A stretch of DNA of 64,000 nt from Acidobacteriota bacterium (GTDB taxonomy: Bacteria; Acidobacteriota; UBA6911; RPQK01; JAJDTT01), in NCBI GenBank assembly GCA_965209055.1, contig OZ242374.1, positions 2,944,001 through 3,008,000 on the forward strand, written 5' to 3'. The stretch's first letter is position 1; every line of letters begins with the position of its first letter. Of the stretch, positions 13,551 to 63,714 are shown one piece after another. Below the pieces are notes generated by a model. The model was not told the origin of the DNA, made no database searches, and saw nothing but the letters and a program-made list of their open reading frames with translations. Made by a program: the position numbers and the translations under genes.

Positions 13551-13746
13551 GGACTGTTGCGTTTCGGAAGGGCCCGAAGGGAGGCTGGCCTCCACGGCGG
13601 CAATATATTCCCCTGCGGACGGCAAATCAATACGAAGATGAGGAGTGAGCAATGGGATAAGGAGGAGAGACACAGGGGCGCACCGGGGAGGGGCCCCTGT
13701 TCCATTGGGAAATGCGTCCGGTTCCCAAAATTTGACGGGTTCCGGG

Positions 13747-13775
13747 TTGACAGGGGTGTGGGATATCGTCAGAAT
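13747..13775 (+). promoter_or_regulatory. sigma70-like promoter of TBDR copy 1
   Basis: TTGACA-17 bp-CAGAAT, retained in copy 2. Confidence 0.7.
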
Positions 13776-13848
13776 GTTGACCGCCTCCCAGGCTCTTCGA
13801 CTGGATATGTGTATCCCAGGCTCAACTAACCTAACGTAGGGGGTCTTA

Positions 13849-16800
13849 ATGGACAGCAAACGATTGTGTCTCGCGCTGGTTCTGGTGGGACTGAGCTTCG
13901 GCTTGGCCCTGGGACAGGGAGACCGGGCTACGGTGGTGGGAACCGTCACCGACAGCACGGGCGCAGTGATTCCAGGCGCCGAGGTGTACATGACCCAGGT
14001 CGCCACCAACCAGGTCCACTCCTCGCTCTCCAGCGACACCGGCCAGTACGCCATGTCGGCGCTGCCGGCGGACGTGTACGAGATGAGGGTCACCATGCCC
14101 GGCTTCAAGACGGAGGTTCGCTCCGGTCTGAAGTTGGACGTGGGACAGAGCTACCGCATCGACATCGAGTTGAGCGTCGGTGAGGTGGCCGAGGTGGTGG
14201 AGGTCGCCTCCACTGCACCGATCCTGAAGACGGAAACGGCGGAGTTCGGACAGGTGATCGACAACAAGAAGATCATCAGCATCCCGCTGAACCAGAGAGA
14301 CGTCTTCGGCGTCTTGGGTGGTCTGACCCCCGGTGTCCAGCCGCTGCGCAACGTCGGCGGCGTCACCAGCGGTGTCGCGTTCAACGTCCGGGGCATGCGC
14401 CGGGCCGACAACAACGCCACGCTGGACGGCTCCCAGATGAGCGAGACCAACGGCTCGCTCCAGTTTTTCGCCAACCCCGACGCCATTCAGGAGTTCGAGG
14501 TCAAGAGCGGCCTCTACGGCGCCGAGTACGGCATCAAGCCGGGCGGCCAGTTCAGCGCCGTCACCAAGAGCGGCACCAACGAGCTGCACGGCACCATCTT
14601 CTGGTTCCACCGCAACGACAACCTGGATGCCCGGAACTTCTTCGACACCGGCCGCAAGAACGAGTTCAAGCGGAACCAGTTCGGTGCTGTTGCCGGTGGT
14701 CCGGTCATGTTTCCGGGCCTTTATGACGGCCGCGACCAGTCCTGGTGGTTTTTCGCCTACAGCGGGGAACGGATCCGCCAGTTCCGGTCGCTGACCGGCA
14801 TTATGCCCACGCCAGCGCAGCGGAGCGGCGTCTTTCCCAACACCATCATGGATCCCATGACGGGAGAACCCTTTCCCAACAACACCATCCCCGCCGATCG
14901 GATCGCTCCCCAGTCCAGGCTGCTGGGAGAACTCTGGCCGGCGCCCAACACCGACATCAGCCGGGGATTCAACTACACCAGCGCCTCCAATGCTCCGGGA
15001 CAACGGAACGAGTACATCGTCCGGATGGACATCAAGACGGGAGACGACAGCCGCTGGTTCGGCCGTTTCCTCTTCAATCAGCGGCCCATCACCTTCGTCA
15101 ACATCGTCGACGCCTTCACCGTCATCAACGGCTTGGACAACTGGGCCCAGAACATCGTCAACACCCGGAACTTCGGGACCAACGTGGTCAACGAGCTGGG
15201 TCTCCATTTTTACAGGCGCCCCTACAATCCGGGCTTTCCGCCTGGAGGCCCCGACCTGGCTAACCAGCTGAACTTTCCCAACTGGCCCAAGCGGGGTGTG
15301 GACCTCAGGGGAACGCCTCGAGTCTCGGTGACCGGCTACCCCACTCTCGGATCCCGCCCCAACCGCGGCCCCGTCCCCGAGGGACAGTGGGAGCTCAAGG
15401 AGAACGTCAGCTGGACCAAGGGCAATCACTACCTGAAGGCCGGTTACCACTACCGGTACCACTACGTCTTCTTCGGCTTGGAACGGCGCAGTGAACTCTA
15501 CTTCAACCAACCCAACTGGTACGCTGGAGACACCTTGGCCAACTTCTACCTGGGATACCTTTCCGGATCCCGGGAGGGAAGCGAGGCTCGTCTGAATCAC
15601 AACTTCCCGGGCCACTACATCTATCTGCAGGACAGTTGGAAGGCCACTCCCAAACTGACCTTGCAGCTCGGTCTCCGTTACGAGTTGCGTCAAGGCTGGG
15701 AGGACAAGCGGGGATTCTCCACCAACCTCAAGGCCGATTGTGCGCTACGCACCGAGAACCCGATTCCTGACTGCTATGATCCTCCTCTGCTCCCGCAGAC
15801 GCTCGTGTTTCCCGAGACCGGGCGGTTCCAGCCCCAGGTAAACGTCTTCACCTGGACCAAGAACGGGTTTCAGCCGCGCCTGGGTCTCTCCTACCGTTTG
15901 ACGGATCAGACGGTATTGCGCATTGGCGGCGGCATATACGGTAACGAGCCGCCGGGCGGCATGATGTACGGTGCGTCCGCTCTGGGCAATCCCCGGCCGA
16001 ACTCCGGCCAGAGGGACTTTGAGGCCCTTGCGGCGGCCCCGAACCTTTTCATCTCCAACCCCTACGATGAGTCGGTTCTGGTCGGCGCCGGCGCCGTCAC
16101 CAATGGGGGCGGATACGAAGACACCATGCCCCAGTGGTACGTGCCCAACTTCGGCTTGTCCCTCCAGCACCGCACCGGCCAGAACAACATGTTCGAAATC
16201 GGATACGAGGGCTCGCGCTCGGTGCACGAGATGCAGGTCTTCCGGTTCAACGACGCCCGTCCGGGTGCAGGGCCTCGTCAGGAACGGCGGCCCTGGCCCA
16301 ACATGACCCGGTACTACATGCTCCTGGGCAACGGCGACCAGACCTACCACGGCTTCAATTTCAAGTGGGAGAAGCGGCCGGGCCAGTATGGTCTGACGTC
16401 GCTCCTGGTCTTCAGTTGGGGCAAGAGCATCGACACCACCGGCGGGCGCCTCAGCGTCACCGGCGACCCGCGCGAAGTGAGCCGAAACCTCTGGGCCGAC
16501 GGCTTCACCTACAAGAACCGGGGCAGAGGCGAGGGCAACATCCCGATGCGGCTGGCCTGGTTGAAGGGTTGGGACATCCCCTTCGGACCTGGCCGCGCCT
16601 ACGGCTCGGACGGCTTCTTCAGCCAGATCTTCGGCGGTTGGAGTGTCTACGCCATCACCACGCTGCAGAAGGGGCACTGGTACACGGTGTCGACCGCGGA
16701 TCTGCTCGACGCGGGCAGCAACGCTTCCCAGCGGCCCGACCTGCTCCGGGATCCCAATTCCGGCAGCCGGCGGCCCGAGTCCTGGTTCCGGACGGACGCG

Positions 16801-17073
16801 TTCACAGCTCCGCCTCCAGGCCAGTACGGGAACGCGGGCCGCGGCATCGTGGAAGGTCCGGGCACCATCAACGTGGACTTCTCGCTATTGCGGGATTTCC
16901 ACCTGGGTGAGGAGACCCGGATCCAGTTCCGGTTCGAGGCCTTCAACCTGACCAATCACACCAACCTCAACTCGAACTGGAACACGTTCAACTTCAACCA
17001 CGGATCTTTCGGATCCATTGGTTCGGCGTTGACCGCAAGACAGTTGCAGTTCGGCCTGAAGATCTACTACTGA
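13849..17073 (+). CDS. TonB-dependent receptor with N-terminal carboxypeptidase-regulatory-like domain (copy 1)
   Basis: signal peptide, GTVTDSTGAVIPGA, VTKSGTNELHG, LDARNFF, C-terminal RQLQFGLKIYY. Confidence 0.93.
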   Translation: MDSKRLCLALVLVGLSFGLALGQGDRATVVGTVTDSTGAVIPGAEVYMTQVATNQVHSSLSSDTGQYAMSALPADVYEMRVTMPGFKTEVRSGLKLDVGQSYRIDIELSVGEVAEVVEVASTAPILKTETAEFGQVIDNKKIISIPLNQRDVFGVLGGLTPGVQPLRNVGGVTSGVAFNVRGMRRADNNATLDGSQMSETNGSLQFFANPDAIQEFEVKSGLYGAEYGIKPGGQFSAVTKSGTNELHGTIFWFHRNDNLDARNFFDTGRKNEFKRNQFGAVAGGPVMFPGLYDGRDQSWWFFAYSGERIRQFRSLTGIMPTPAQRSGVFPNTIMDPMTGEPFPNNTIPADRIAPQSRLLGELWPAPNTDISRGFNYTSASNAPGQRNEYIVRMDIKTGDDSRWFGRFLFNQRPITFVNIVDAFTVINGLDNWAQNIVNTRNFGTNVVNELGLHFYRRPYNPGFPPGGPDLANQLNFPNWPKRGVDLRGTPRVSVTGYPTLGSRPNRGPVPEGQWELKENVSWTKGNHYLKAGYHYRYHYVFFGLERRSELYFNQPNWYAGDTLANFYLGYLSGSREGSEARLNHNFPGHYIYLQDSWKATPKLTLQLGLRYELRQGWEDKRGFSTNLKADCALRTENPIPDCYDPPLLPQTLVFPETGRFQPQVNVFTWTKNGFQPRLGLSYRLTDQTVLRIGGGIYGNEPPGGMMYGASALGNPRPNSGQRDFEALAAAPNLFISNPYDESVLVGAGAVTNGGGYEDTMPQWYVPNFGLSLQHRTGQNNMFEIGYEGSRSVHEMQVFRFNDARPGAGPRQERRPWPNMTRYYMLLGNGDQTYHGFNFKWEKRPGQYGLTSLLVFSWGKSIDTTGGRLSVTGDPREVSRNLWADGFTYKNRGRGEGNIPMRLAWLKGWDIPFGPGRAYGSDGFFSQIFGGWSVYAITTLQKGHWYTVSTADLLDAGSNASQRPDLLRDPNSGSRRPESWFRTDAFTAPPPGQYGNAGRGIVEGPGTINVDFSLLRDFHLGEETRIQFRFEAFNLTNHTNLNSNWNTFNFNHGSFGSIGSALTARQLQFGLKIYY

Positions 17074-17095
17074 TCCGGGTTTCAGGCTTGATTCG

Positions 17096-17131
17096 AAAGC
17101 GCGCCTGCCATTGCGGCAGGCGCGCTTTTTT
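17096..17131 (+). terminator. intrinsic terminator (possibly bidirectional)
   Basis: AAAGCGCGCCTGCC-ATTGC-GGCAGGCGCGCTTT plus T-run after the TBDR1 stop. Confidence 0.9.
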
Positions 17132-17510
17132 GTGGTTGAAAGAGGGTGGGCGGTTCTGCTCAGGCGCAGTAGCCGCCGTTGTAGCACTTTGCCATGGACC
17201 GGAACCAAGCACTTCGCGCCCTCACCGAGTCGGGCTGACCCAGCCGTCGGCGCCGTCTCCTGTCCCCACTCCACGAACCGGCCATCGATCCGGGGATCCT
17301 CAGATTTGGTCTCGGTCGTTTCGGCCTCATTGGGGCCTCAAACCGGTCCCTTCTGGCCGGACTGACCTCCATGTCCATGCCCCGCCACCCCTGATCCCCC
17401 GTCCTCTTGGGCCAAGGACCCCGAAGAACCTGTCGCCCCTCTTCGCACGTCGTGGAGAGCACTCCACAATTGAACAGAGTGAGATCGCCCTCTAATTGGA
17501 CTAATCCAGG

Positions 17511-17539
17511 TTGACAGGGGTATGGGATACCGTCAGAAT
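17511..17539 (+). promoter_or_regulatory. sigma70-like promoter of TBDR copy 2
   Basis: TTGACA-17 bp-CAGAAT. Confidence 0.7.
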
Positions 17540-17613
17540 TTCGAACGCCTCCCAGGCTCTTCGAGTGACTGTGTGTATCCCAGGCTCAACTAACCTAACG
17601 TAGGGGGTTTTGA

Positions 17614-20600
17614 ATGGATAGCAAACGATTGTGTCTCGCGCTGGTTCTGGTGGGACTGAGCTTCGGCTTGGCCCTGGGACAGGGAGACCGGGCTACGGTG
17701 GTGGGAACCGTCACCGACAGCACGGGCGCAGTGATTCCAGGCGCCGAGGTTTACATGACTCAGATCGCCACCAACCAGGTCCACTCCTCGCTCTCCAGCG
17801 ACACCGGCCAGTACGCCATTTCGGCGCTGCCGGCGGACGTGTACGAGATGAGGGTCACCATGCCCGGCTTCAAGACGGAGGTCCGCTCCGGTCTGAAGAT
17901 GGACGTGGGACAGAGCTACCGCATCGACATCGAGTTGAGCGTCGGTGAGGTGGCCGAGGTGGTGGAGGTCGCCTCCACCGCACCCATCCTGAAGACGGAG
18001 ACGGCGGAGTTCGGACAGGTGATCGACAACAAGAAGATCATCAGCATCCCGCTGAACCAGAGAGATGTCTTCGGTGTTTTGGGCGGTCTGACGCCGGGCA
18101 TCCAGCCTCAGCGGAATGTCGGCGTCGTCACCAACGGTGTGGCCTTCAATGTACGGGGGCTTCGGCGAGGTGACAACAATGCCACGCTCGACGGTTCTCA
18201 GATGAGCGAGACCAACGGCTCGCTCCAGTTTTTCGCCAACCCCGACGCCATTCAGGAGTTCGAGGTCAAGAGCGGCCTCTACGGCGCCGAGTACGGCATC
18301 AAGCCGGGCGGGCAGTTCAGCGCCGTCACCAAGAGCGGCACCAACGAGCTGCACGGCACCATCTTCTGGTTCCACCGCAACGACAACCTGGATGCCCGGA
18401 ACTTCTTCGACACCGGCCGCAAGAACGAATTCAAGCGGAACCAGTTCGGCGCCGTTGCCGGCGGACCGGTCATGTTTCCGGGCCTCTATGACGGTCGCGA
18501 CCAGTCCTGGTGGTTCTTCGCCTACAGCGGTGAGCGGATCCGCCAGTTCCGTTCGTTGACGGGCACTGTGCCTACGGCGGCCGAGCGGGGTGGCGTGTTT
18601 TCCAGCGCCATCATGGATCCCATGACGGGTGAACCGTTTCCCAACAACACCATTCCCGCCAACCGGATCACTCCTCAGTCCAAGCTGCTGGGTGACCTCT
18701 GGCCTACCGCCAATACCCCCATCAGCCGGGGATTCAACTACACCAGCGCCTCCAATGCTCCGCAGGAGCGGAACGAGTACATCGTCCGGATGGACATCAA
18801 GACGGGCGACGACAGCCGCTGGTTCGGCCGTTTCCTCTTCAATCAGCGGCCCATAACGTTTGTCAACGTCGTTGACGCCTTCACCGTCATCAACGGCTTG
18901 GACAACTGGGCCCAGAACGTGGTCAACACCCGGAATTTCGGGACCAACATCGTCAACGAGTTGGGGCTTCACTTCTACCGTCGGCCCTACAATCCCGGCT
19001 TCCCGCCGGGCGGGCCCGATCTCGCCGACCAGTTGAATTTCCCCAACTGGCCAAAGCGGGGCGTGGATCTCTTTGGAACTCCTCGAGTCGCAGTGACCGG
19101 GTACCCGACAATCGGATCCCGCCCCAACCGTGGCCCCGTTCCCGAGGGTCAGTGGGAGATCAAGGAGAACGTCAGCTGGACCAAGGGCAATCACTACCTG
19201 AAGGCGGGTTACCACTACCGGTACCATTACATCTTCTTTGGCCTCGAGCGGCGTAGCGAACTCCACTTCAATACTCCGACGCGCTATACCGGAAACGCCT
19301 TGGCCAATTTCTACCTGGGCTATCTGAGTAACTCTCGAGAGGGAAGCGAAGCCCGCCTGAACCATAACTTTCCGGGTCACTACATCTACTTGCAGGACAG
19401 TTGGAAAGCCACTCCCAATCTGACCCTGCAACTGGGGCTCCGGTATGAGTTGCGCCAGGGTTGGGAAGATAAACGCGGGTTTTCCACCAACCTCAAGGCC
19501 GAATGTGCGATGCGTACGGAGAGTCCGATTCCAGATTGCTATTCGCCCCCTCTGCTCCAACAGACCCTCGTGTTTCCCGAGACCGGGCGGTTCGACCCAC
19601 AGGTGAACATCTTCACCTGGACCAAGAATGGCTTTCAGCCCCGCTTGGGTCTTTCCTATCGGTTGACAGACCGGACCGTGTTGCGTGCCGGCGGCGGAAT
19701 CTATGGGAACGAGCCTCCGGGCGGCATGCTGTACGGTGCCGCGGCGCTCGGAAATCCCAGGCCTAATTCGGGCCAGCGAGACTTCCCGGCCGATGCAAGC
19801 TCTCCGAATCTGTTCATCGACAACCCCTACGACGAGGCGGTCCTGAAAGGTACTAGTGGCCAGCTACTTCCGGGGGGTGGATATGAGGACGTGATGCCCC
19901 AATGGTATGTGCCCAACTGGGGAGTGTCGGTCCAGCATCGCGCTGGTGAAAACAACATGTTCGAGATTGGATACGAGGGTTCGCGCTCAGTGCACGAGAT
20001 GCAAATTTTCGAATTCAACGACGCGGTTCCCGGGACTGCTCCCCGTCAGGAAAGACGGCCTTGGCCCTCGATGACCCGGTATCACATGCTCTTCGGCAAT
20101 GGTGACCAGTCGTATCACGGCTTTAACTTCAAATGGGAAAAACGGCCAGGTCTGAATGGATTGACGTCACTCTTGGCCTTTAGTTGGGGCAAGAGTCTCG
20201 ACACGACTGGCGGACGTTTGGGAATCGTTGGCGACCCGCGTGGTGTGACCCGAAACCTCTACGCCAACGGATTCAGCACCAAGAACAAGGGGCTGGGCGA
20301 GGGCAATATCCCGCTTCGACTGGCTTGGTTGAAGGGTTGGGACATTCCATACGGCCCCGGTCGTGCCCATGGCAGCGATGGCTTCTTCGCCCAGATATTC
20401 GGTGGTTGGAGCCTGTATGCCATTACGACTCTCCAGAAGGGACAGTGGTATACGGTTTCGACCACAGATATGCTGGACGTGGGAAGTAACGCTTCTCAAC
20501 GACCGGATCTGGTGGGCGATCCCAATACCGGCAGCAGGCGTGCCGATTCCTGGTTCCGAACGAGTGCTTTCGCAGCGCCGCCTCCGGGACAGTACGGGAG

Positions 20601-28481: not shown

Positions 28482-28623
28482 CCGCTCGGGGAAAGCGGAG
28501 GTGGACGGGAGCGACCCCCCTTTTTTGCCTCCCGGATCGGCAAAGCGGGGCAGGCTGATGCGCACTGACCGTGCCATCGCCTCGGGGGGTCGCTCCCGTC
28601 CCAATGATCCCTGCCGGGAAGGC
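28482..28623 (+). ncRNA. structured non-coding motif copy A (RNA or ssDNA structure, function unknown)
   Basis: 18-bp perfect inverted repeat 28503-28520 / 28584-28601 enclosing two hairpins; homologous flanks in three other copies. Confidence 0.45.
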
Positions 28624-29107
28624 CTCTGGATCGCCTGAGCGCGTGGCGGTGCGGCACGGAACGGCGCGGTGGGCAGGCCGCCGCGTGCCAGTGCTCGTAC
28701 AAGCGTCTGTGGACGGCCCCGATGGCTGGACGGAGTGATCTGGCGGATCGAACAGGCAATCTTCTTCCAGAAATGCGGAGTGTGCTGAAAGGGACGCGGG
28801 CCGATTCGACGGCTATGGCAGCGTCAGGGCCTCGCTGAGACCGGCCATCGAGTGGCGACCAGGGGCGGAAGATCGCGCCGCCGGCGTGGAGATCGACGAC
28901 GACGTTCGCGACGCTCTCGTGGCGGGCGACACGCTTGCCGGGGAGCTCATTTTGACGGGTACAGAGCGCCCCACCGTGTCGATCCGGGAGTGTAAGGGAG
29001 ACAACGGGGGCAACTTACATCATGGGAGTCTGCCAACTTACACACGCGATTTCTCCGATCTCTTTGTCGCTCATGCTGTTACGGCCACATTCCCGGCTCC
29101 GCCGTGC

Positions 29108-29248
29108 CCGCACGGGGAAAGCGGAGGTGGACGGGAGCGACCCCCCCCTTTTTCCTGCCCGGTGCGGGCGCGGGGGCGTGGCGCAACTTACATCTGCGCC
29201 ACACCCCCTGGGGGGGTCGCTCCCTTCCAAAATATCCCTGCGGGAAGC
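29108..29248 (+). ncRNA. structured non-coding motif copy B
   Basis: GGGAGCGACCCCCCC...GGGGGGGTCGCTCCC stem with two inner hairpins. Confidence 0.45.
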
Positions 29249-29789
29249 CCCGGAGAAGAATCCGGAAGACCTGTCAGGGCTCTGCCAGGCGTCCGTTCTC
29301 GACACGCGGTGCAGGATCCAGGCATGACCACAGGCGACACGTGCCAATGGGGTCCGCAGGTGCAGGTGGATTTTCGGCGTCCTCTTGGACGAGGAGGTGG
29401 ACCGAACCCCGGAAGGCCTGAACTCGGAACGGCAGGCGGAGGTTCGCGTCGGGGTCCGCTCCAGGCCCAGCCCCCGATCCAGGGCCTGGCCGACGAGGCG
29501 GCCGGTGCGGGTGGTGGTGGTCCGGCCGTCGAGAGCCGCCTCCACGCCGTGGTGGCACCGGAGCAAGCGGCGGTCGAAGCGCAGGGCGCGGTTTCTCCGG
29601 CAACCCGGAACGGATGACGGACCGGGGGAACCGATCCCCCCAGACCCCTCAGTGGCGCCAGAACCCCTGGCGGCTCACCTTGCCGCCAGTGAACCTGGCG
29701 CTTCTGTTCGTCGCGCGTCCCATGAGAATGGGACCCTCACGCGGTCTCCTCGGCCTTCCAGCCGGGAGTGAGACGTTCGCCCGTTTCCG

Positions 29790-29876: not shown

Positions 29877-30167
29877 GCGAGAAACTCGTCCATGGAGTCC
29901 ACGGACCTCCAATAGGGTCGAATGGAATCCCGTTTAGAAGGTGGGATGTAATGATGTAACCTGCTCGGGAGAATAGATCATAACTACTTTATTATCAGAT
30001 ACTTAAGAGATCGTTTCCGTAGAGGGGACGGCAGTCCCCCCTTTACGCTTATCCACCGCTGACTCGCACGGAAAAAGGAAGAATGGGGGACTAACAGTCC
30101 CGCGCTCTGTCCTGCTGAGCTTGGGGCGCTTGCTTTTATTTTCAAGGGGTTACGCCACTGCTCTCCT

Positions 30168-31256
30168 CTAGTCATTCCCCCTATTTCCTGCCTGTTGCCT
30201 GTTTGTTGCCGGGCGCATTTGTGAGTCTTCGGTAGCCTGTGCCTCCCGAATGCTGGCCAGCGCGTGGGAACTGACGTACCCGGCGTAGCGCATCGTCGTG
30301 CTGATTGCCGAGTGACCCATCAGCTTCTGCACCGTCCTCACGTCCACCCCCTGCATCAGCCAATGGCTGCACCGGAATCGTCTCAGGTCGTGAAATCCGA
30401 CCTTCAACCCCACCCGCTCGGCGGCCCGGCGCAACGGCTTGTCCGGATTCACCCATCTCGTCCCGGTCCGGGTGTTGACGAAGACGTAAGGGGTGTTCAG
30501 GTAGCGAACCAGCCCGGCCAGGTATCCAGCAGCGTACTTCGACAGCGGGATCTCCCTCGTCTCGTCGTTCTTGGTGAATTCCACCCATAGCAGCCTCCGG
30601 GATAGGTCCACCCGTTTCCAGGTGAGCGACAACGCTTCGCCTTTTCGAATCCCCGTCTCGCCGATCACCGCAACCATGGCTTGCAGGTATGGGTTGTCCA
30701 TTGCCCCGACCAGGTCGCGGAACTGTTGAACCGTCAAGGGCCGGAAGACCTTCTTGGGTTCTTTCAGTTTGGGGAATCTCACCAGCGGGTGCGTGTCCAC
30801 TTCCCCGCACTCCAGCGCGTAGGAAAACAGCTTGCTGATGGCGGCGATGTCGCGGTTCACCGTGGCCGGCTGCACTTGCTTCTTTCTCTTGGCGACGTAG
30901 CGGTACAGGTCCTTGCGTTGGAACTCCTTCAGGGGAATGTTCCCCAGCATGGCGTTGAGGCTCTTGAAGGAGAGCGCATAGCGACGCCGGGAGCGCATGC
31001 GAGGTTTGCAGTACTCCTCGAAGAAACGCTCGTAGAAGCTCCGGACCGTCCAGACGGTGCGGTTCCCGCCGGCGAGTTCCTCCTTGAGCTGCTTCCATGT
31101 GCCGTCCAGGATGCTGGACTCGATTCGTGTTTGAAGCGCCTGTGCGCTCCGGTAGTTGGGGGCGTACATTCTGAGCCGACCGGATCCGTGCGGCCAGTAC
31201 TTGCTGACGACATAGCGTCGTCTCCCCCGGCGATCCTTCACCTTGTAGATGCCCAT
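30168..31256 (-). CDS. tyrosine recombinase/integrase, 362 aa
   Basis: RBS AGGAG before MGIYKV; PATVNR, TGIRKGE, TKN, FHDLRR, MGHS, RY. Confidence 0.95.
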   Translation of the reverse strand: MGIYKVKDRRGRRRYVVSKYWPHGSGRLRMYAPNYRSAQALQTRIESSILDGTWKQLKEELAGGNRTVWTVRSFYERFFEEYCKPRMRSRRRYALSFKSLNAMLGNIPLKEFQRKDLYRYVAKRKKQVQPATVNRDIAAISKLFSYALECGEVDTHPLVRFPKLKEPKKVFRPLTVQQFRDLVGAMDNPYLQAMVAVIGETGIRKGEALSLTWKRVDLSRRLLWVEFTKNDETREIPLSKYAAGYLAGLVRYLNTPYVFVNTRTGTRWVNPDKPLRRAAERVGLKVGFHDLRRFRCSHWLMQGVDVRTVQKLMGHSAISTTMRYAGYVSSHALASIREAQATEDSQMRPATNRQQAGNRGND

Positions 31257-31916
31257 AGCATCTCCTCCTTTCTGGATCCGGGTTCTTCGCCGTGGGGCGA
31301 ATCCTACCACGGCGCCAGAGAATCGACGTCGGCGTTCAGGTCCTTCAGAGCGAGGACGCGGCGGCGGCTCCATCCAGATCACAACGGCGGGCCGATTTCG
31401 TCCTGGTCCGCGATTCCGGCAAGCCGGAACGGATGACGGACCGGGGGGAACTCTCCCCCCAGACCCCCCAGTGGCGCCCTCAAAGAGTCAGGCTCACCAT
31501 GCCGGACTCTTTTTCACGCGCTCCTGTTTGTCGCGTCCCATATGAATGGGTCCCTCGCGCGGTCTCGGACGGCTTCCAGCCGGGAGCAGGATTTCTTTCG
31601 TGGAAGGTGCTGATTGTGGGGTCAGCAAAACGACGCACCCTGTGGGAAATCTCTGATTTTCCACACGGTGGGGAGGCTCGAACCCAGGGCCTCGGCGCTC
31701 ACTGGAAGGGATTTTCAGTTGGTAGGTGTCTCTTCTTCTTGTCCGGTCAAAATCTTTCTCGTAGCTCTGACAGCCACAGCGCGGACAGCGGTAAGCGCGG
31801 CGGCCGCGGAGCTTCTCCACCGCCTGCTTCCTGAGGGCCTCCAGCCGTTCCTGGTTGTTGTGGATATCAGGGATGCTCCTGCATCCCATCTTGCCCGTCA
31901 GGGTGTCATCTCTTGC

Positions 31917-32058
31917 CTTCCCGCTAGGGATAATTTCGACGGGAGCGACCCCCCCAGGGGGTGCTGCGCAAATGTGAATTGCGCAACACCCCCGCGCCCG
32001 CACTGGGCGGCAAAAAGGGGGGGTCGCTCCCGTCCACCTCCATTTTCCCCGTGCGGCC
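31917..32058 (-). ncRNA. structured non-coding motif copy C
   Basis: near-identical reverse complement of copy D. Confidence 0.45.
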
Positions 32059-32790
32059 ACCCGGTGGCCGGAAATGGGGCCGCAACTGACTGAAAGGAAA
32101 AAAGATCGGGGAGAGTGCATTTGTGAGTCACCGGGACCGCTTTTTGTGAATCCACCCCCTTTGTCCCATTCACATCCCGGAGCGGGCGCGAGACCCTCTT
32201 GACGCACTGCCGAAACGAGCCTCCATTGGCCCTTGCGACTGCCAAGTGCGTTCACCGTCAATCACGACCTGGAAGGAGCGACTTTCCGCCGCTGGTTGCA
32301 ACTCGACCGCCCGCTTCAGTGCGGCCGTCACCCTGCCTTAGGAGTTGAGGCGGCCCTGGTCGGTCGAGTGCCCCGGAATCGACACGGACGACGACGGTCC
32401 GGTCGGCCTCGACGGCAATCGGCGGCTTGAGCGCGAAGTCGCATCGGGTCTTCCCCACCGTGCCGTAGTACAGTTGCCGGGGATGCCGATTCTTGGGAAT
32501 GCCCCGCCGTTCGAAGCCGGACACCTTCGGCCTCAGGCAGAGTCCTCCGGTGGGGCCAAACGGTCGGCAAAGCCAATCGGATAAGGTCTTTGAGCCAGGC
32601 AACGGAAGGGGAAAAAGGGCGCGTCGGCTTTCAGGAACCGATCCGGCTGCCTGTTTGTTGCCTGTTCAGTATGTCAAACATGGGGAGTCAATCACTTTTC
32701 CGATTCGGCGAAGAACCCGGTAAATGATTGAAAACGTTAACGTTCGGTAGTCTTTGACTGTGGGACAGTTGGGACTAACAGTCCCCCCTC

Positions 32791-42279: not shown

Positions 42280-43824
42280 ATGGGGGCATCCTGGGTGGGG
42301 AGACAGTCTTGTCTCCGTCTTCAACACCTGATCATTCTCGTCGCCGCTATGGGAGCCTCCGCCCCGGGCGCTTCCGCGGAAACCGTCGACGTGGGCTCCC
42401 GTCTCGAGCTCATGGTGGATGAACATCTCATCGACCGCATGTCGGGAGGAGCCCGGTTGCAGGTCCACCGGCCGGTCCGGCGGAACGTGGCCCTGGAGAC
42501 CGGTGAGCCCTGGGAGGGAAACGCCTCCTTCTACCGGACGGTGTTCCAGGACGGAAGCGTCTACCGGATGTACTACGGCGCCTGGCACTACGAGACGACG
42601 GAGACGGGAATGACCTACCCCCACCGTCCGTACCTCTGCTATGCGGAGAGCAGCGACGGTATCCACTTCCGGAAGCCGAAGCTGGGGCTGGTGGAGTTCC
42701 GGGGCAGCACGGACAACAACATCGTCCTCTCCGAGACCACGCTCAACTCGGTCGAAGCCGACCCCGGCCACGCCGCCGTCTTCATTGACGACAATCCCGA
42801 CTGTCCCGAAGACGCCCGCTACAAGATGATCATCCGGTCCCGGGGCGAAAAGGGTCTCTTGGCGCTCAAGTCGCCGGACGGATTCCGCTTCACCCCCATG
42901 TCGGACCGCGTTGTGATTTCGGAAGGGGCCTTCGATTCCCAGAACCTGGCCTTCTGGGACCCCGTGCGGCGAGAGTACCGGGCCTATTTTCGAGGATTCC
43001 GGGAGGGGATCAGGGACATTCTGACCGCCACCTCGGCCGATCTCCTGAACTGGACGAAACCGGTCTGGTGCGAGTATCCGGGGGCTCCGTCGGAACATCT
43101 CTACACCAACCAATTGCGGCCCTACTACCGGGCGCCCCACATCCTGGTGGGCTTTCCCATGCGCTACAAGGACCGGGGACCCACCGAAGCGACTTGGCGG
43201 CTACCGGGGCGTGAAGCCCGGGAGCACAGATCCTCCGTCAACCAACGCTATGGAACAGCCGTGTCCGACGCCCTCCTGATGACGGGCCGGGACCGGCATG
43301 ACTTCAAGCGTTGGGGAGAGGCCTTCATTCGACCCGGGCCCGCCCGGACCGACAGTTGGGTCTATGGAGACAACATGATCGCCTGGGGAATCGTCCAGAC
43401 CCGATCGGATCGTGTCGGTTCTCCCGACGAACTCTCCATCTACGTGGTGGAAGGGTACTGGGTGGGGCGAGGCATCAACGTTCGGCGTTACTCCCTCCGG
43501 ATGGACGGATTCGTATCCGTGCGGGCGCCGTTGGCCGGTGGGGAGATCGTGACCCGTCCTCTCCGATTCGACGGCAATCGGCTACGCCTCAACTATTCCA
43601 CCTCCGGCAGCGGCGGAATCTGGGTCGAACTCCAGGACGCGGACGGCAGGCCCCTGGAGGGTTTCAGCCAGGCGGATGCGGATGAGGTCTTCGGAGACCA
43701 GATCGAAGGCGTCGTGACCTGGAAGGGGAACCGTGACGTCAGGTCGCTCGCCGGCCAACCGGTCCGGATCCGGTTCGTTCTCAAGGACGCCGACCTGTAC
43801 GCTTTTCACTTTGCCGCCGACTAG
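42280..43824 (+). CDS. exported glycoside-hydrolase-like (probable beta-propeller) protein, paralog 1
   Basis: YAESSDGIHFRKPKLG, FDSQN, LRMDGFVS, DADLYAF; signal-like N-terminus. Confidence 0.75.
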   Translation: MGASWVGRQSCLRLQHLIILVAAMGASAPGASAETVDVGSRLELMVDEHLIDRMSGGARLQVHRPVRRNVALETGEPWEGNASFYRTVFQDGSVYRMYYGAWHYETTETGMTYPHRPYLCYAESSDGIHFRKPKLGLVEFRGSTDNNIVLSETTLNSVEADPGHAAVFIDDNPDCPEDARYKMIIRSRGEKGLLALKSPDGFRFTPMSDRVVISEGAFDSQNLAFWDPVRREYRAYFRGFREGIRDILTATSADLLNWTKPVWCEYPGAPSEHLYTNQLRPYYRAPHILVGFPMRYKDRGPTEATWRLPGREAREHRSSVNQRYGTAVSDALLMTGRDRHDFKRWGEAFIRPGPARTDSWVYGDNMIAWGIVQTRSDRVGSPDELSIYVVEGYWVGRGINVRRYSLRMDGFVSVRAPLAGGEIVTRPLRFDGNRLRLNYSTSGSGGIWVELQDADGRPLEGFSQADADEVFGDQIEGVVTWKGNRDVRSLAGQPVRIRFVLKDADLYAFHFAAD

Positions 43825-43847
43825 GAGGGGCGACTTTCAGTCGCCCT
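43822..43847 (+). repeat. REP-like palindrome at the stop codon
   Basis: TAGGAG, then G-run/CGACT-TTC-AGTCGCCC hairpin. Confidence 0.7.
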
Positions 43848-43916
43848 GTGCGGGGAGTAGGGGAGACGGTAGTCCTTCCACTGCAGTTGATGCACAATCG
43901 ATTAGAGGGACGAGCC

Positions 43917-44093
43917 ATGGAGAACGAGCCGATCATGAATGACCAAGGCTATCGCCGCACACTCAAGGCGATTGAAGGCCTGATGACTGCCAAGCGCGGC
44001 ACTCCTGAAGGCGACCGGCTGGATGTTCCAGTAACGTCGGTCGAGGCTTGGGAGGCGCTAGATTTTCCTGCGGACACCGGGATCGAGACGTGA
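43917..44093 (+). pseudogene. truncated HigA-type antitoxin (N-terminal half, HTH missing)
   Basis: PIMNDQGYRRTLKAIEGLM...GTPEGDRLDV..VEAWE pattern; only 58 aa. Confidence 0.7.
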
Positions 44094-44221
44094 TTAGAGA
44101 ACCTGGCCGCGATGGACGCAGTGCGGAGGGCTTGCCACTCGGGGGCTATCGAGAGTTGATGTGCATTCTCCTGTGGGAATGCCGGCATTAGAACCAGGGA
44201 ATTCAGGGAGGAATCCGAAAA

Positions 44222-45742
44222 ATGCCGCTATTCGTGATCTTGCTCGTACTCGTCACCGGAACCGCCGTCATGGGCGCCTCCGACGGGGTCGCCGACGTGG
44301 GTTCGCGTCTTGAACTCATGGTGGATGAACATCTCATCGACCGCATGTCGGGAGGAGCCCGGCTGCAGCTCCACCATCCGGTCCGGCGGAACGTGGCTCT
44401 GGTGACCGATGCGCCCTGGGAAGGGAACGCCTGCCATTACCGCTCGGTGTTCCAGGACGGAAGCGGCCACCGGATGCGCTACCGGATGTACTACGGCGCC
44501 TATCAGTACGAGGTGACGGAGACGGGCCAGACCTATCCTCACCGCCCGTACCTCTGTTACGCCGAGAGCAGCGACGGCATCCACTTCCAGAAACCGAAGC
44601 TGGGACTGGTGGAGTTCCAAGGCAGCACGGACAACAACATCATCCTCTCCCAGACGACGCTGAGCTCGGTCGAGGCGGACCCCGGCCACGCCGCCATCTT
44701 CAAGGACGACAATCCCGACTGCCCCGAAGACGCCCGCTACAAGATGATCATCCGGTCCAGGGGCGAGAAGGGCCTGTTGGCGCTCAAGTCGCCGGACGGA
44801 CTCCGGTTCACCCCCATGTCGGACCGGGTGGTGATCTCCGAAGGGGCCTTCGATTCGCAGAACCTGGCTTTCTGGGACCCGGTGCGGGGAGAGTACCGGG
44901 CCTACTTCCGCGGGTTCCAGAACAAGGTCAGGGACATCCTGACGGCCACCTCTCCCGATTTCCTGAACTGGACGGACCCGGTCTGGTGCGAGTATCCGGG
45001 GGCGCCCCGGGAGCATCTCTACACCAACCAGTTGCGGCCCTACTACCGGGCGCCCCACATCCTGGTCGGTTTCCCCATGCGCTACAAGGACCGGGGCTCC
45101 ACCGAAGCGACCTGGCGCCTGCCGGGCCGGGAAGCCCGGGAGAACAGGTCGAAGGTATCCCAGCGCTACGGCACGGCCGTGACCGACTCGCTTTTGATGA
45201 CGGGCCGCGACCGGCTCCACTTCAAACGCTGGGGAGAGGCCTTCCTTCGACCCGGTCCTGCCCGAATCGACAGTTGGGTCTACGGAGACAACAGCATCGC
45301 CTGGGGAATCGTCCAGACCCGCTCCGACCGCGCCGGTTCTCCGGAAGAACTTTCCATCTACGTGGTGGAAGGGTACTGGATGGGCCGGAGCCTGAACGTG
45401 CGCCGCTACTCCCTGCGGATGGACGGTTTCGTCTCCGTGCAGGCGCCGTTGGCCGGTGGCGAGATGGTGACCCGGCCTCTTCGCTTCGAAGGCAATCGGC
45501 TTCGCCTCAACTATTCCACCTCGGGAAGCGGCGGGATCTGGGTCGAGCTCCAGGACGCGGACGGCAATTCGCTGGAGGGCTTCAGCCAGGCGGATGCGGA
45601 TGAGGTCTTCGGAGACCAGATTGAGGGCGTGGTGACCTGGAAGGGGAACCGGGACGTCAGCTCACTGGCCGGCAAGCCGGTCCGGATTCGGTTCGTCCTC
45701 AAGGACGCGGACCTGTACGCGTTTCGCTTTGCTTCCGATTGA
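44222..45742 (+). CDS. exported glycoside-hydrolase-like protein, paralog 2
   Basis: highly similar to 42280-43824; signal peptide. Confidence 0.78.
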   Translation: MPLFVILLVLVTGTAVMGASDGVADVGSRLELMVDEHLIDRMSGGARLQLHHPVRRNVALVTDAPWEGNACHYRSVFQDGSGHRMRYRMYYGAYQYEVTETGQTYPHRPYLCYAESSDGIHFQKPKLGLVEFQGSTDNNIILSQTTLSSVEADPGHAAIFKDDNPDCPEDARYKMIIRSRGEKGLLALKSPDGLRFTPMSDRVVISEGAFDSQNLAFWDPVRGEYRAYFRGFQNKVRDILTATSPDFLNWTDPVWCEYPGAPREHLYTNQLRPYYRAPHILVGFPMRYKDRGSTEATWRLPGREARENRSKVSQRYGTAVTDSLLMTGRDRLHFKRWGEAFLRPGPARIDSWVYGDNSIAWGIVQTRSDRAGSPEELSIYVVEGYWMGRSLNVRRYSLRMDGFVSVQAPLAGGEMVTRPLRFEGNRLRLNYSTSGSGGIWVELQDADGNSLEGFSQADADEVFGDQIEGVVTWKGNRDVSSLAGKPVRIRFVLKDADLYAFRFASD

Positions 45743-45790
45743 GCGGAGAATCGGGCTCGACGGGGGCTATCTTAAAGGAACGAGGGGGCG

Positions 45791-46165
45791 ATGCAGGAGA
45801 GAGACAAGAGCTTGACGCCCATCCATCCCGGGGAAATTCTACGTAGCGAGTTCATGGAGCCGATGGGCGTCACTCAGTACCGGCTGGCCAAGGACCTCTC
45901 CGTGCAACCGCTGAGGGTCAGTGAAATCGTCCGGGGCAAGCGAGGAATCACGGCCGACACGGCCCTGCGCCTGGGTCGGTACTTTGGTCTGTCCGCCGCC
46001 TACTGGATGAATCTACAGGCGCTTTACGAGATTGAAGTCGCCGAAGATCGACTTCAGGATCGCCTGGAAAAAGAAGTGACCCCGCGTTGCGACGTCGCAG
46101 CCTGCTGCACATCGAGCGAGAAGCGATCAGTCGTTGGCGGTGCCGGCCTGCCTATTTCCGTTTAG
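45791..46165 (+). CDS. higA: HigA family addiction module antitoxin (no adjacent toxin)
   Basis: PIHPGEIL, RVSEIVRGKRGITADTALRL, YWMNLQ. Confidence 0.92.
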   Translation: MQERDKSLTPIHPGEILRSEFMEPMGVTQYRLAKDLSVQPLRVSEIVRGKRGITADTALRLGRYFGLSAAYWMNLQALYEIEVAEDRLQDRLEKEVTPRCDVAACCTSSEKRSVVGGAGLPISV

Positions 46166-46651: not shown

Positions 46652-46813
46652 TTCTCAAGATCTCCTGATGCAGAGCAAAGACGGTTCTCGTCCCAATAGT
46701 TTGATGACTGTTTCTTGAAGATCGTTCATTTATCCGACGACCCCAGCTTGTCCTGCGGGGTGACTTGCCAAGAGTCTCGACGGCATGCATCCTGCCTGCG
46801 GGAGGTCTATCGT

Positions 46814-60379: not shown

Positions 60380-60716
60380 TCGTACGAAACACTCCCGTTG
60401 GAAAAGCCTTGCACGATTATATCCCGCCACCGCGACTTCCTTCCACCTGGGCCGGGGACTGTTAGTCCCAACTGTCCCACAGTCAAAGACTACCGAACGT
60501 TAACGTTTTCAATTATTTACCGGGTTCTTCGCCGAATCGGTAAAGTGGTTGACTCTCCATGTTTGACATGCTGAACAGGCAACAAACAGGCAGCCGAATC
60601 GGTTCCTGAAAGCCGACGCGCCCCTTATCCCCCTTCCGTTGCCTGGCTCAGAGACCTTATCAGATAGGCTTTGCCGACCGTTTGGCTCCACCGGAGGACT
60701 CTGCCTGAGGCCGAAG

Positions 60717-61070
60717 ATGTCCGGCTTCAAGCGGCAGGGCATTCCCAAGGATCAGCATCCCCAGCAAGTGTACTACGGCGCGGTGGGGAAGACCCGCCGC
60801 GACTTGGCGTTCAAACTGCCGATTGCCGTCAAGGCGGACCGGACCGTCTTCGTCCGTGTCGATCCGGAGCACTCGACCGACCAGGGCCGGCTCAACTCCT
60901 AAGGCAGGGTGACGGCCGCCCTGAAGCGGGCGGTCGAGTTGCAACCAGCGGCAGAAGTTCGCTCCTTCCAGGTCGGGATTGACGGTGAACGCACTTGGCC
61001 GTCGCAAGGGCCAATGGAGGCTCGTTTCGGCAGTGCGTCAAGAGGGTCTCGCGCCCGATCCGGGATGTGA
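60717..61070 (+). pseudogene. degenerate hypothetical gene fragment inside the element
   Basis: protein-like frame YYGAVGKTRRDLAFKLPIAVKADRTVFVRVDP with in-frame TAA at 60900; frameshifted in copy 1. Confidence 0.45.
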
Positions 61071-61183
61071 ATGGGACAAAGGGGGTGGATTCACAAAAAG
61101 AGGTCCCGGTGACTCACAAATGCACTCTCCCGGATCTTGTTTCCTTTCAGTCAGTTGCGGCCCTATTTCCGGCCACCGGGTGG

Positions 61184-61325
61184 CCGCACGGGGAAAGTGG
61201 AGGTGGACGGGAGCGACCCCCCCTTTTTGCCGCCCAGTGCGGGCGCGGGGGTGTTGCGCAATTCACATTTGCGCAGCACCCCCTGGGGGGGTCGCTCCCG
61301 TCGAAATTATCCCTAGCGGGAAGGC
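61184..61325 (+). ncRNA. structured non-coding motif copy D
   Basis: 18-bp stem 61206-61223 / 61285-61302 enclosing CGCCC/GGGCG and GGGGGTGTTGCGCAA/TTGCGCAGCACCCCC hairpins. Confidence 0.45.
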
Positions 61326-62030: not shown

Positions 62031-63119
62031 ATGGGCATCTACAAGGTGAAGGATCGCCGGGGGAGAAGACGCTATGTCGTCAGCAAGTACTGGCCGCACG
62101 GATCCGGTCGGCTTCGAATGTACGCCCCCAACTACCGGAGCGCACAGGCGCTTCAAACACGAATCGAGTCCAGCATCCTGGACGGCACATGGAAGCAGCT
62201 CAAGGAGGAACTCGCCGGCGGGAACCGCACCGTCTGGACGGTCCGGAGCTTCTACGAGCGTTTCTTCGAGGAGTACTGCAAACCTCGCATGCGCTCCCGG
62301 CGTCGCTATGCGCTCTCGTTCAAGAGCCTCAACGCCATGCTGGGAAACATTCCCCTGAAGGAGTTCCGACGCAAGGACCTGTACCGCTATGTCGCCAAAA
62401 GGAAGAAGCAAGTGCAGCCGGCCACGGTGAACCGGGACATTGCCGCCATCAGCAAGCTGTTTTCCTACGCGCTTGAGTGCGGAGAAGTGGACACGCACCC
62501 GCTGGTGAGATTCCCCAAACTCAAAGAACCCAAGAAGGTCTTCCGGCCCTTGACGGTTCAACAGTTCCGCGACCTGGTCGAGGCGATGGACAACCCCTGC
62601 CTGCAAGCCATGGTTGCGGTGATCGGCGAGACGGGGATACGGAAAGGCGAAGCGTTGTCGCTCACCTGGAAACGGGTGGACCTATCCCGGAGTCTGCTAT
62701 GGGTGGAGTTCACCAAGAACGACGAGCCGAGGGAGATTCCGCTCTCGAAGTATGCTGCTGGATACCTGACCGGGCTGGTTCGCTACCTGAACACGCCATA
62801 CGTTTTCGTCAACAGCCGGACTGGCACGAGATGGGTGAATCCGGACAAGCCGTTGCGCCGGGCCGCCGAGCGGGTGGGGTTGAAGGTCGGATTTCACGAC
62901 CTGAGACGATTCCGGTGCAGCCATTGGCTGATGCAGGGGGTGGACGTGAGAACGGTGCAGAAGCTGATGGGTCACTCGGCGATCAGCACGACCATGCGCT
63001 ACGCCGGGTACGTCAGTTCCCATGCGCTTGCCAGCATACGGGAGGCACAGGCTACCGAAGACTCACAAATGCGCCCGGCAACAAACAGGCAACAGGCAGG
63101 AAATAGGGGGAATGACTAG
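62031..63119 (+). CDS. tyrosine recombinase/integrase, 362 aa
   Basis: nearly identical to 30168-31256; full R-K-HxxR-H-Y set. Confidence 0.95.
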   Translation: MGIYKVKDRRGRRRYVVSKYWPHGSGRLRMYAPNYRSAQALQTRIESSILDGTWKQLKEELAGGNRTVWTVRSFYERFFEEYCKPRMRSRRRYALSFKSLNAMLGNIPLKEFRRKDLYRYVAKRKKQVQPATVNRDIAAISKLFSYALECGEVDTHPLVRFPKLKEPKKVFRPLTVQQFRDLVEAMDNPCLQAMVAVIGETGIRKGEALSLTWKRVDLSRSLLWVEFTKNDEPREIPLSKYAAGYLTGLVRYLNTPYVFVNSRTGTRWVNPDKPLRRAAERVGLKVGFHDLRRFRCSHWLMQGVDVRTVQKLMGHSAISTTMRYAGYVSSHALASIREAQATEDSQMRPATNRQQAGNRGND

Positions 63120-63192
63120 AGGAGAGCAGTGGCGTAACCCCTTGAAAATAAAAGCAAGCGCCCCAAGCTCAGCAGGACAGAGCGCGGGACTG

Positions 63193-63714
63193 TTAGTCCC
63201 CCCGTCCCCTTTGCGCCAATCCTCCAATTGAAGTTCGGCGGTTGAAAACCCCCGTTCCTTCTCCACGGTCCCACTCCCGGGCCATTTGCTTCAAATCCGC
63301 CACAATACTGCTGTAGGCGGGGTCGCCGTACAGGTTGCGCTGCTCCCAGGGGTCGTTCAGGAGATGGTAGAGGGACCCGTCCTCGTCGGGTACCCGCTCG
63401 TCCATGAAGAAGACCAGCTTCCATTCCCGGGTCCGGACCATGACCCGCCGTCCCCCGCTGCGGCGAAGTTCCTCGTAGGCATCTTCGCTGTGATCGTGCT
63501 CCGAGAAACAGGCCCGGCGCCACTCCCGGACCTCGCCCCGGATCAAGGGCAGCAGGCTCCGGCCCCGAATCCCGGAGGGCGGGTCGAAACCGGACAGCTC
63601 CAGCAGCGTCGGCAGGAAGTCCACCATCTCCACCGGCTCCGTCACCACCTTGCCCTGAGGCAGCAGCCCTGGAGCCCGAAGGATGAACGGGACCTTGACG
63701 TTGGTGTCGTAGAA
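63193..63714 (-). pseudogene. C-terminal part of a sulfatase, apparently interrupted upstream
   Basis: FYDTNVKVPFILRAPG, VEMVDFLPT, GRSLLP, MVRTREWKL, LYHLLNDPWEQRNL; similarity is lost beyond ~63715. Confidence 0.75.

Follow-up and report, generated by a model that had tools for sequence, protein, structure and literature searches.

Within a 64,000-nucleotide stretch of the genome of an Acidobacteriota bacterium (contig OZ242374.1, positions 2,944,001 to 3,008,000; hereafter the window), two near-identical DNA segments, copy 1 and copy 2, are each built around a single tyrosine integrase gene and end in the same 15-bp palindrome. We consider it very probable that the two belong, as members without cargo, to a family of small genomic islands that integrate site-specifically and whose lambda-type integrase derives from an enzyme that inserted into the anticodon loop of a tRNA-Arg gene and now uses the hairpins of repetitive extragenic palindromes (REPs) as its chromosomal attachment site, attB.

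Two short copies within a family of 26 elements

The palindrome, GGGACTGTTAGTCCC, has exactly four matches in the window (at 30087, 32771, 60455, and 63186), where none is expected from 100 shuffles. The segments that these sites delimit, 30087-32785 and 60455-63200, are mutually inverted and align in four collinear blocks with 90-97% complementarity. Copy 1 (2699 bp) and copy 2 (2746 bp) are 96.2% identical at 100% coverage, the exceptions being an indel of 47 bp and some 240 bp of higher divergence. A wider symmetry, GGACAG..core..CTGTCC, is legible at both ends of the copies. An earlier, sequence-only reading of the window had described the two copies, the palindrome at all four of their ends and this extra symmetry, and our data confirm it on these points. 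The features of the two copies are listed below, with P and P' denoting the arms of the element's own attachment site, attP, and int the integrase gene.

Copy 1
30087..30101, no strand: core site on the integrase side (exact palindrome match); its central 7 bp are the probable crossover, as judged from the hybrid ends of one subfamily (T4, see below)
30102..30126, minus: putative relic of a tRNA 5' half (D-arm-like), part of the attP P arm (element right ends match tRNA-Arg(TCT) by blastn; collinear in the related genome G003)
30168..31256, minus: tyrosine integrase, 362 aa, intact (PF00589, E 1.1e-26; N-terminal integrase domains; catalytic motifs; codon bias)
30196..30210, minus: arm motif GGCAACAAACAGGCA of the P arm, inside the 3' end of int, a candidate arm-type integrase site by its conservation
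31560..31889, minus: small zinc-ribbon frame in relic form, here truncated or fused (about 60 aa long elsewhere; no Pfam match, no codon-position bias)
31915..32250, minus: conserved structured noncoding module, a long GC-rich three-part hairpin (61 genomic copies, pairing, fold z score)
32378..32524, minus: "sm" open frame, C terminus frameshifted relative to copy 2, probably noncoding (tblastn, no codon bias)
32648..32662, minus: arm motif GGCAACAAACAGGCA of the P' arm (exact in 21 of 26 left arms)
32771..32785, no strand: core site at the far end (exact palindrome match)

Copy 2
60455..60469, no strand: core site at the far end (exact match; empty equivalent in G008 and in a contig of run X6)
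60578..60592, plus: arm motif of the P' arm (exact 15-mer match)
60717..60902, plus: "sm" open frame of 61 codons, no coding signature (tblastn, substitution counts)
60990..61325, plus: structured module (mapped from inverted-repeat block I2)
62031..63119, plus: integrase, 362 aa, 98% identical to that of copy 1 (G000:C1:3006031-3007116, no internal stops)
63077..63091, plus: arm motif of the P arm (exact 15-mer match)
63161..63185, plus: putative relic of a tRNA 5' half (blastn of right ends to tRNA-Arg)
63186..63200, no strand: core site on the integrase side (exact palindrome match)

The integrase of copy 1 matches PF00589 at 94.1 bits against a cut-off of 27.1 (E 1.1e-26) and also N-terminal integrase domains in Pfam, Int_N (PF24624) scoring 27.1 against 27 bits. 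Its catalytic Arg, His-x-x-Arg, and His..Tyr motifs (GIRKGE, HDLRR, SHW, and GHS..TTMRY) are in register with those of a solved integrase chain, 5c6k_A. Across the integrase genes, substitutions by codon position (1967/1098/4299) are biased toward the third position, a signature found in this frame only, the two other conserved open frames standing at about 1:1:1. These findings bear out the claim that an intact 362-aa recombinase is the only convincing gene, and they support the view of the interior as largely noncoding and structured. Models of other tyrosine recombinases fit poorly. XerC and XerD score 95 and 85 bits (cut-offs 335 and 330), and the integron-integrase models TIGR02249 and NF011946 score 60.6 (cut-off 265) and 28.7 bits (cut-off 435). 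A phage or plasmid origin was rejected, the phage and plasmid collections yielding no close relative of the integrase and best tblastn identities below 30% in both.

The genome to which the window belongs (G000) is a single 6.08-Mb contig with 62.8% G+C. A blastn search of this contig with copy 1 returned 152 high-scoring segment pairs, and the pairing of left-arm with right-arm matches delimits 26 elements (E01-E26) of 2.7-25 kb, in which copy 1 is E10 and copy 2 is E11. The 28 integrase matches in the genome correspond to these 26 elements and to two pieces of one pseudogene. Elsewhere in the genus there are 14 integrase matches in G004 and between none and three in each of seven other genomes, with none in G001. 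All 26 elements have in common a far-end arm (about 170 bp), a module (about 330 nt), and int with the region upstream of it; the right arm is common to all 25 elements with a complete end. The remaining one, E26 (G000:C1:6074465-6077182), is cut by the contig end 28 nt before the end of the element, and this repeat seems to be the point at which the assembly was broken or closed.

Each element has one family integrase, and its cargo, where present, is located between the common blocks. A Pfam scan of 40 of the larger cargo frames identified restriction-modification systems of type III (E01), type I (E07, E13, E19, and E23), type ISP (E25), and the MmeI-like type IIL (E20); GmrSD together with a NucS-like nuclease (E08 and E14), GmrSD alone (E12), or the NucS-like nuclease alone (E17); Cas3 with a GSU0054-family Cas protein (E15); Abi_alpha, AbiTii, and FRG (E06); and LRR and fn3 repeat proteins (E04, E21, and E05). 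Defence systems are thus the cargo of E01, E06-E08, E12-E15, E17, E19, E20, E23, and E25, while both window copies are cargo-free. Other mobile DNA is nested in some of the larger elements, namely DDE transposases of insertion sequences in E08, E14, E12, and E05, and a second, unrelated integrase with an Arm-DNA-bind_3 domain (G000:C1:3382675-3384042) in the 20.6-kb E13.

The two window copies are, consequently, the smallest, cargo-less end of a 26-member family and not a separate class of transposon. The sequence-only reading had proposed such a class, minimal and resembling an insertion sequence (IS), to be abandoned if other copies extended into larger elements. They do extend, the same ends, arm motif, module, and integrase bounding elements of up to 25 kb, with defence cargo in much of the family.

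As a side observation, three elements (E02, E14, and E22) have a group II intron of 1.9 kb in their int gene, located after codon 3 and on the sense strand. Its copies (G000:C1:3708107-3710022, 784166-786077, and 5306071-5307983) are 99.9-100% identical, begin with GTGCG, and have a domain V matching RF00029 at 41 bits. The intron has a specific homing site within this integrase family. A 539-aa frame in the insert was rejected as a gene, having no Pfam match and being the antisense strand of the intron.

REP targets, attachment sites, and polarity

We typed the elements as T1-T4 by their terminal 15-mers. The nine T1 elements, both window copies included, have GGGACTGTTAGTCCC at both ends, with the overlap CTGTTAG. 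The seven T2 elements end in GGGACTAACAGTCCC and CGGACTAACAGTCCC (overlap CTAACAG), and the five T3 elements, one of them with TTTCTAA, in GCGATTTCCAATCCC and CGGATTTCCAATCGC, which share 11 nt. The five T4 elements end, with variants, in GGGTTTTCCTATCCC and CGGATTTCCTACCCC. All of these ends are direct copies of the attachment core, and the elements have no terminal inverted repeats.

The target palindromes are not a property of the elements. The 37 exact copies of the T1 palindrome in G000 comprise 25 element ends and 12 free sites; G001, a complete genome in which the integrase has no match, contains 18 copies, G008 contains 17, and the other six genomes of the genus contain none or one. 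The T3 site is found in all nine genomes of the genus; in G000, where it often stands in tandem or inverted pairs, exact copies number 80 (138 with at most one mismatch). T3-type ends also occur in G005, G007, and G008. Since the T1 palindrome is present 18 times in a genome without the integrase and the T3 site is present in all nine genomes, these palindromes exist independently of the elements. At the locus of copy 1, the stop codon of a Gfo/Idh/MocA-like gene marks the start of the hairpin, and a T-rich tract comes after the hairpin. At the same spot in the seven relatives examined, a REP hairpin with another loop directly follows the stop codon of the neighbouring gene. The palindromes are, in short, genuine host REPs of a terminator-like kind, and the earlier description of a multicopy system, driven by a tyrosine recombinase and precisely inserted at a REP-type palindrome, is well supported. 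Elsewhere in the window (52110-52248), two tandem T3-type REPs (..GGGCGATTGGAAATCGCCCC..), 83 bp apart, represent free attB-like sites for the T3 subfamily.

The T4 ends bear on the position of strand exchange. Their left and right sites, attL (GGGT-TTTCCTA-TCCC) and attR (CGGA-TTTCCTA-CCCC), have only the central 7 nt in common, differing at positions 1, 4, and 12, and the reciprocal combination, GGGTTTTCCTACCCC, is present in the genome as a free site. This is the pattern expected of attL/attR hybrids in which reciprocal exchange is confined to 7 bp. The crossover is therefore likely to lie within this heptamer, which would be the equivalent of the anticodon loop. Reconstructed attP cores are near-constant, (C/G)GGA-7 nt-TCCC, with 4-bp inverted arms, whereas the arms of the chromosomal cores vary (GGGA/TCCC, GCGA/TCGC, and GGGT/(A/C)CCC). 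Five overlap heptamers are in use in G000. In G004, eight of the 14 copies show further heptamers beside a constant CGGA arm (CTTCCAG, TTTCTAG, CTTTTAG, and a CTTTCCTG form).

Both arms also contain a conserved 15-mer, GGCAACAAACAGGCA, in direct orientation and at a distance of about 120 bp from the core. Of the 26 left (P') arms, 21 have it exactly, as do 22 of the 25 complete right (P) arms; in the other eight arms it is one base off. In the window it has four matches, two per element and none elsewhere, against none expected. Its presence in both arms, together with the N-terminal domain of the protein, points to the architecture of an arm-site integrase, for which the motif would be the binding site.

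The target hairpins are polar, reading AGGAGGG-hairpin-CC(G/A)T(C/T)TTC, and insertion follows this polarity. In all nine T1 elements it is the far end that adjoins the AGGAGGG-type side of the REP (diverged in E11, with the flank ..GGGCCG), and in all seven T2 elements it is the integrase end. The sole difference between the two types is the inverted central triplet of an otherwise palindromic heptamer, GTT in T1 and AAC in T2. Their integrases are intermixed in the integrase tree, E18 (T1) grouping with E09 (T2) at 100/94, and E06 (T2) with E16 and E24 (T1) at 98/97. This shows that the overlap, not the protein, sets the polarity of insertion, as is established for tyrosine recombinases.

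Ancestry in islands at tRNA-Arg genes

Immediately inside the integrase-side core, 25 nt resemble the 5' half of a tRNA, and a blastn search with the right ends of the elements matches the true tRNA-Arg(TCT) gene of G000. By this resemblance the integrase-side end is best described as the 5' half of a tRNA in relic form, its acceptor strand degenerate. An intact version of the same arrangement exists in G003, a genome of the same genus, in which an integrase with 83% identity is followed by the same arm motif, by the same GTTGAAAAGAAA.. box and by an intact tRNA-Arg(TCT) gene. In G010 (Arg-TCG) and G012 (Arg-TCT), the arrangement is similar to that in G003, the integrase standing beside an intact tRNA-Arg gene; integrase-tRNA junctions were read at three loci (L006, L007, and L010). 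ARAGORN reported tRNA genes in 12 of the 20 integrase loci, including 11 of the 12 from outside the genus and one of the eight from within it, and Arg tRNA genes are present at seven of the 20. By contrast with these relatives, it reported no tRNA at any of the 26 element ends in G000, the genome's 69 tRNA/tmRNA genes lying elsewhere, except for calls within elements that are cargo or tRNA-like.

A tree of 33 integrases, 29 of them associated with REPs (G020 was left out, its match being shorter than 300 aa), gives the same picture. The REP-associated integrases form a clade (97/90), whose successive sisters are the integrases of G003 (98/93) and then G010, both beside tRNA-Arg genes. Moreover, the loop of tRNA-Arg, CTTCTAA, is one base from the REP loop TTTCTAA, which is used by E05, and two from TTTCCAA. 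Since the nearest relatives of the integrase flank real tRNA-Arg genes, the system is a retargeted integrative island of the tRNA type. In the figures reported for the Islander collection, attP is centred on the anticodon in 2083 of 3919 islands, and a 5' tDNA fragment, the kind present in our elements, is rare, with 159 islands against 3760 with a 3' fragment (PMC4383910).

There are signs of a second tRNA association in the genome. Of its six tRNA-Leu(TAA) genes (at 477237, 1381642, 1991443, 2104898, 2524782, and 3018716), one is inside E06, another is close to the end of an orphan element at 484.6 kb, and frames resembling "sm" occur about 1.6 kb from two of the six. This pattern suggests a second family of tRNA-associated elements.

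Structured interior, spread, and relation to known systems

The interior contains the module of about 330 nt, of which G000 has 61 copies. Every one of the 26 elements contains one in the orientation of the integrase; three large elements hold another five between them, oppositely oriented, and the remaining 30 are outside elements. The module is read in different frames in different copies and is therefore noncoding. Its hairpin is 97.2% paired over 55 distinct copies, seven of the 31 pairs showing double-sided (compensatory) changes, and folds more stably than shuffled sequences (z = -6.26). No Rfam family was found in the window between 28000 and 33500, the best match being a plastid 3' UTR family (27 against 53 bits).

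A universal structured module could make the copies what the sequence-only reading took them for, a distinct minimal IS-like transposon of the tyrosine-recombinase class whose 1.5-kb structured noncoding part functions in transposition, e.g., as an RNA or DNA cofactor of targeting. That the integrase is the only gene with a coding signature, that the module is present in every element in the same orientation, strongly structured and with some compensatory changes, and that identical short copies occur at different sites would all fit. We nevertheless regard this as very unlikely, since cargo-bearing elements of up to 25 kb have the same ends and integrase, and the ancestry is that of a tRNA-type island. 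Nor is the module private to the elements, 30 of its 61 genomic copies being outside them and upstream of unrelated accessory genes. We also rejected the module as a guide RNA resembling the bridge RNA of IS110. No column of the module discriminates T1 from T2, T3, or T4, and the heptamer or its complement is found in none of the 26 modules, so that the target is not encoded by the module.

What the module may do instead is hinted at by its position. At least nine elements have the start of their largest cargo gene on the same strand as the module, 250-580 nt downstream. Copies outside elements precede genes for a TrwB/TraG-like type IV coupling protein, Cas3, an 1100-aa LRR protein, and a kinase-TPR protein, and four such loci are as follows.

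G000:C1:1830009-1832060: module copy outside elements, before accessory genes
G000:C1:4882198-4884447: the same
G000:C1:71250-74552: the same
G000:C1:2480008-2482353: the same

The module marks accessory-gene units in general, and the candidates for its role are a cargo leader or promoter, or a transfer origin. A sigma-70 promoter scan found no sites, and terminator-like sites number four against 3.3 expected. The last candidate role leads to an alternative that would add to our explanation. The elements might be integrative and mobilizable, with the module as the origin of transfer (oriT) or another cis site for a resident conjugative element or phage, and would then spread and gain copies through cell-to-cell transfer instead of by the integrase alone. 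The module is indeed universal and of fixed orientation in the family, it is a large hairpin whose structure is conserved at the DNA level, one copy lies directly upstream of the coupling-protein-like gene (TrwB and TraG domains), and identical copies at several sites require a source of extra copies. We consider it unlikely all the same, because several modules are in tandem or composite repeats, which is unusual for oriT, and a promoter or leader would fit equally well the cargo genes that follow 250-580 nt downstream on the same strand. No evidence of a relaxase or nick site turned up, no search having been aimed at either.

The two other conserved frames of the interior are without the signature of genes. 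For the 61-codon "sm" frame, tblastn finds 18 places, substitutions are even across codon positions (507/517/502), and the only database relatives are seven close ones, one of which is the window's own protein. It was rejected as an excisionase or regulator on these grounds and for want of a Pfam family at threshold, and it is probably noncoding. The zinc-ribbon frame is intact in E06, E17, and E12 (about 60 aa, two CPxCG motifs), while the window copies keep a truncated fusion. This frame has no Pfam match and shows 297/240/267 substitutions by codon position in nine copies, of which one is frameshifted and one has a stop, and it is probably decaying.

Two kinds of repeat outside the elements were also seen. 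Adjoining copy 1, at 28482-29768 of the window, is a composite repeat of about 1.3 kb with the upstream-of-int block and two copies of the hairpin module, both inverted relative to the element. It recurs at about four other loci, near 183.7 kb, 1066 kb, and 2678 kb and, more loosely, 815 kb, where there are three module copies and no upstream-of-int block. This repeat, without a convincing gene, may be a non-autonomous relative. Unrelated to the elements, the window regions 13741-20172 and 42329-48084 hold tandem duplicated gene blocks with periods of 3.77 kb and 1.9 kb and 78-97% identity.

The family has spread recently. The site of copy 2 is empty in the sister genome G008 (..CCACCTGGGAGGGGACTGTTAGTCCCCCATTCCCC..), with flanks 93-96% identical, and a single 205-nt contig of X6, a DNA run from another study, connects 60450 with 63182; its shorter side spans 64 nt, and the two sides share 18 nt. 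Within G000, three pairs of elements are 100% identical (E11, i.e., copy 2, and E26; E16 and E24; E08 and E14 apart from the intron) at different REPs with unrelated flanks, and E09 and E02 are 99.2% identical. Together, the empty sites and the identical copies at different REPs show recent spread in this lineage, cargo-less forms included. In another DNA run, X1, contigs break at element ends. In runs X5 and X8, labelled as sponge and coral-reef metagenomes, some contigs match the unique flank of copy 2 at 98-100% identity, and diverged pieces of the elements are numerous.

The same observations bear on the view that the short copies are dead remnants of larger islands, left by cargo deletion and multiplied by old insertions or segmental duplication. 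The copies do carry truncated relics, with the zinc-ribbon frame cut after its first CPxCG and "sm" frameshifted in copy 1, and they share pieces with the larger elements. However, their integrases are intact, the site of copy 2 is empty in both G008 and the X6 contig, and E11 is 100% identical to E26, as E16 is to E24, at different REPs and with unrelated flanks. We find this view very unlikely.

As we picture it, a retargeted island of this family would excise as a circle whose attP has, as its P arm, the 3' end of int with GGCAACAAACAGGCA and the relic tRNA 5' half. The core would follow, its inverted 4-bp arms, (C/G)GGA and TCCC, flanking the 7-bp overlap, and then the P' arm, CTGTCC.. with the second copy of GGCAACAAACAGGCA about 120 bp away. 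The N-terminal domain of the integrase would bind the arm motifs and its central domain the core arms, and strands would be exchanged inside the overlap with a REP hairpin of the same heptamer. Integration would leave the core at both ends of the inserted element and break no gene, the heptamer serving as an address that also sets the orientation. With hundreds of REPs available, many copies of the element can coexist.

Several points weigh against this account. No attP-like joint of the circle is present in the assembly, nor is a circle junction in the contigs of four DNA runs; the latter negative is not informative, because all four runs were available as contigs, in which rare forms cannot show up. 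An excisionase was not identified either; neither of the two small conserved frames has a coding signature. Conservative recombination alone does not explain the rise in copy number; copies could be gained by transfer between sister chromosomes or between cells, and the short copies may depend on the integrases of larger relatives. The integrase tree is rooted at the midpoint only. The role of GGCAACAAACAGGCA as a binding site is argued from conservation, and its P-arm copy lies within coding sequence, which could also conserve the motif. Finally, of the empty sites that the sequence-only reading had reconstructed, that of copy 2 is found in G008 and the X6 contig, but an exact empty site of copy 1 is absent from the seven relatives, in which the REP has another loop.

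A more comprehensive reading, which we put forward tentatively and as a whole, has four parts. The integrase might be a scaffold, with constant arm sites and attP core arms, that is re-addressed by changes in the 7-bp overlap. A tRNA-Arg island could then have jumped to families of REPs whose loops mimic the anticodon loop. From there, it may have radiated into at least 10 "addresses," one of them inverted, which flips the polarity, as a self-multiplying platform for carrying defence genes. The universal 330-nt hairpin would be a new cis-acting part, a cargo leader or switch or a transfer origin. All four holding together is possible rather than probable.

The closest known systems are the islands in tRNA genes (class A of Islander). 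As in these islands, the integrase gene stands beside one end, attP holds part of a tRNA, the 7-bp overlap corresponds to the anticodon loop and the inverted core arms to its stem, and homologues in relatives are beside intact tRNA-Arg genes. In contrast to them, none of the 26 elements in G000 is in a tRNA gene; the targets are REPs, there are 26 copies per genome, and the overlap is diversified. Residence in a tRNA gene, the defining feature of the island family, is missing because the elements have moved to REPs. The system works like an integrative island of the tRNA type and is, phylogenetically, one.

REP hairpins are known targets of some IS3- and IS110-family elements, for which, as here, they are safe, multicopy, intergenic landing sites. 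Those elements rely on DDE or DEDD transposases, whereas here a tyrosine integrase with arm sites makes a conservative crossover in the hairpin, and cargo reaches 25 kb. Nor are the elements insertion sequences, their only gene matching PF00589, their ends being direct copies of the attachment core, and their attL/attR hybrids fitting reciprocal site-specific exchange. In REP/RAYT systems (REPtrons), REPs are mobilised by a Y1 HUH transposase, to which the integrase described here (PF00589) is unrelated in fold family.

Integrons, with IntI and folded attC hairpins, likewise combine a tyrosine recombinase acting on hairpin-forming imperfect palindromes with modular defence and accessory cargo. 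Our elements are not integrons, however: each has its own integrase and both arms, there is neither attI nor a cassette array, and the integron models score far below cut-off. Xer-dependent elements (IMEX) differ in that ours have their own integrase with arm motifs and many targets, the XerC and XerD models again falling below cut-off. Mobile phage-defence elements and islands on integrase-bearing elements are known from Vibrio and from P2/P4-like hotspots. The larger family members resemble them in pairing an integrase with one defence system, while differing in that many paralogous elements share a genome, at REPs, and that the window copies are without cargo.

A search of the open-access literature, mostly at the level of abstracts, found no tyrosine integrase described as targeting REPs and no description of this system, in line with the earlier suggestion that it was undescribed. 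The family offers a natural route from a single-site tRNA integrase to a multicopy, IS-like vehicle, a mechanism for rapid turnover of defence systems within a genome, and, for REPs, the new role of landing pads. Its integrases, 89-100% identical and associated with different heptamers, one of them inverted, are a natural experiment on how the overlap sets target and orientation, which bears on the retargeting of integrases for genome engineering. Islands of the tRNA type are themselves known; what is new is one that has been retargeted to REPs and become multicopy.

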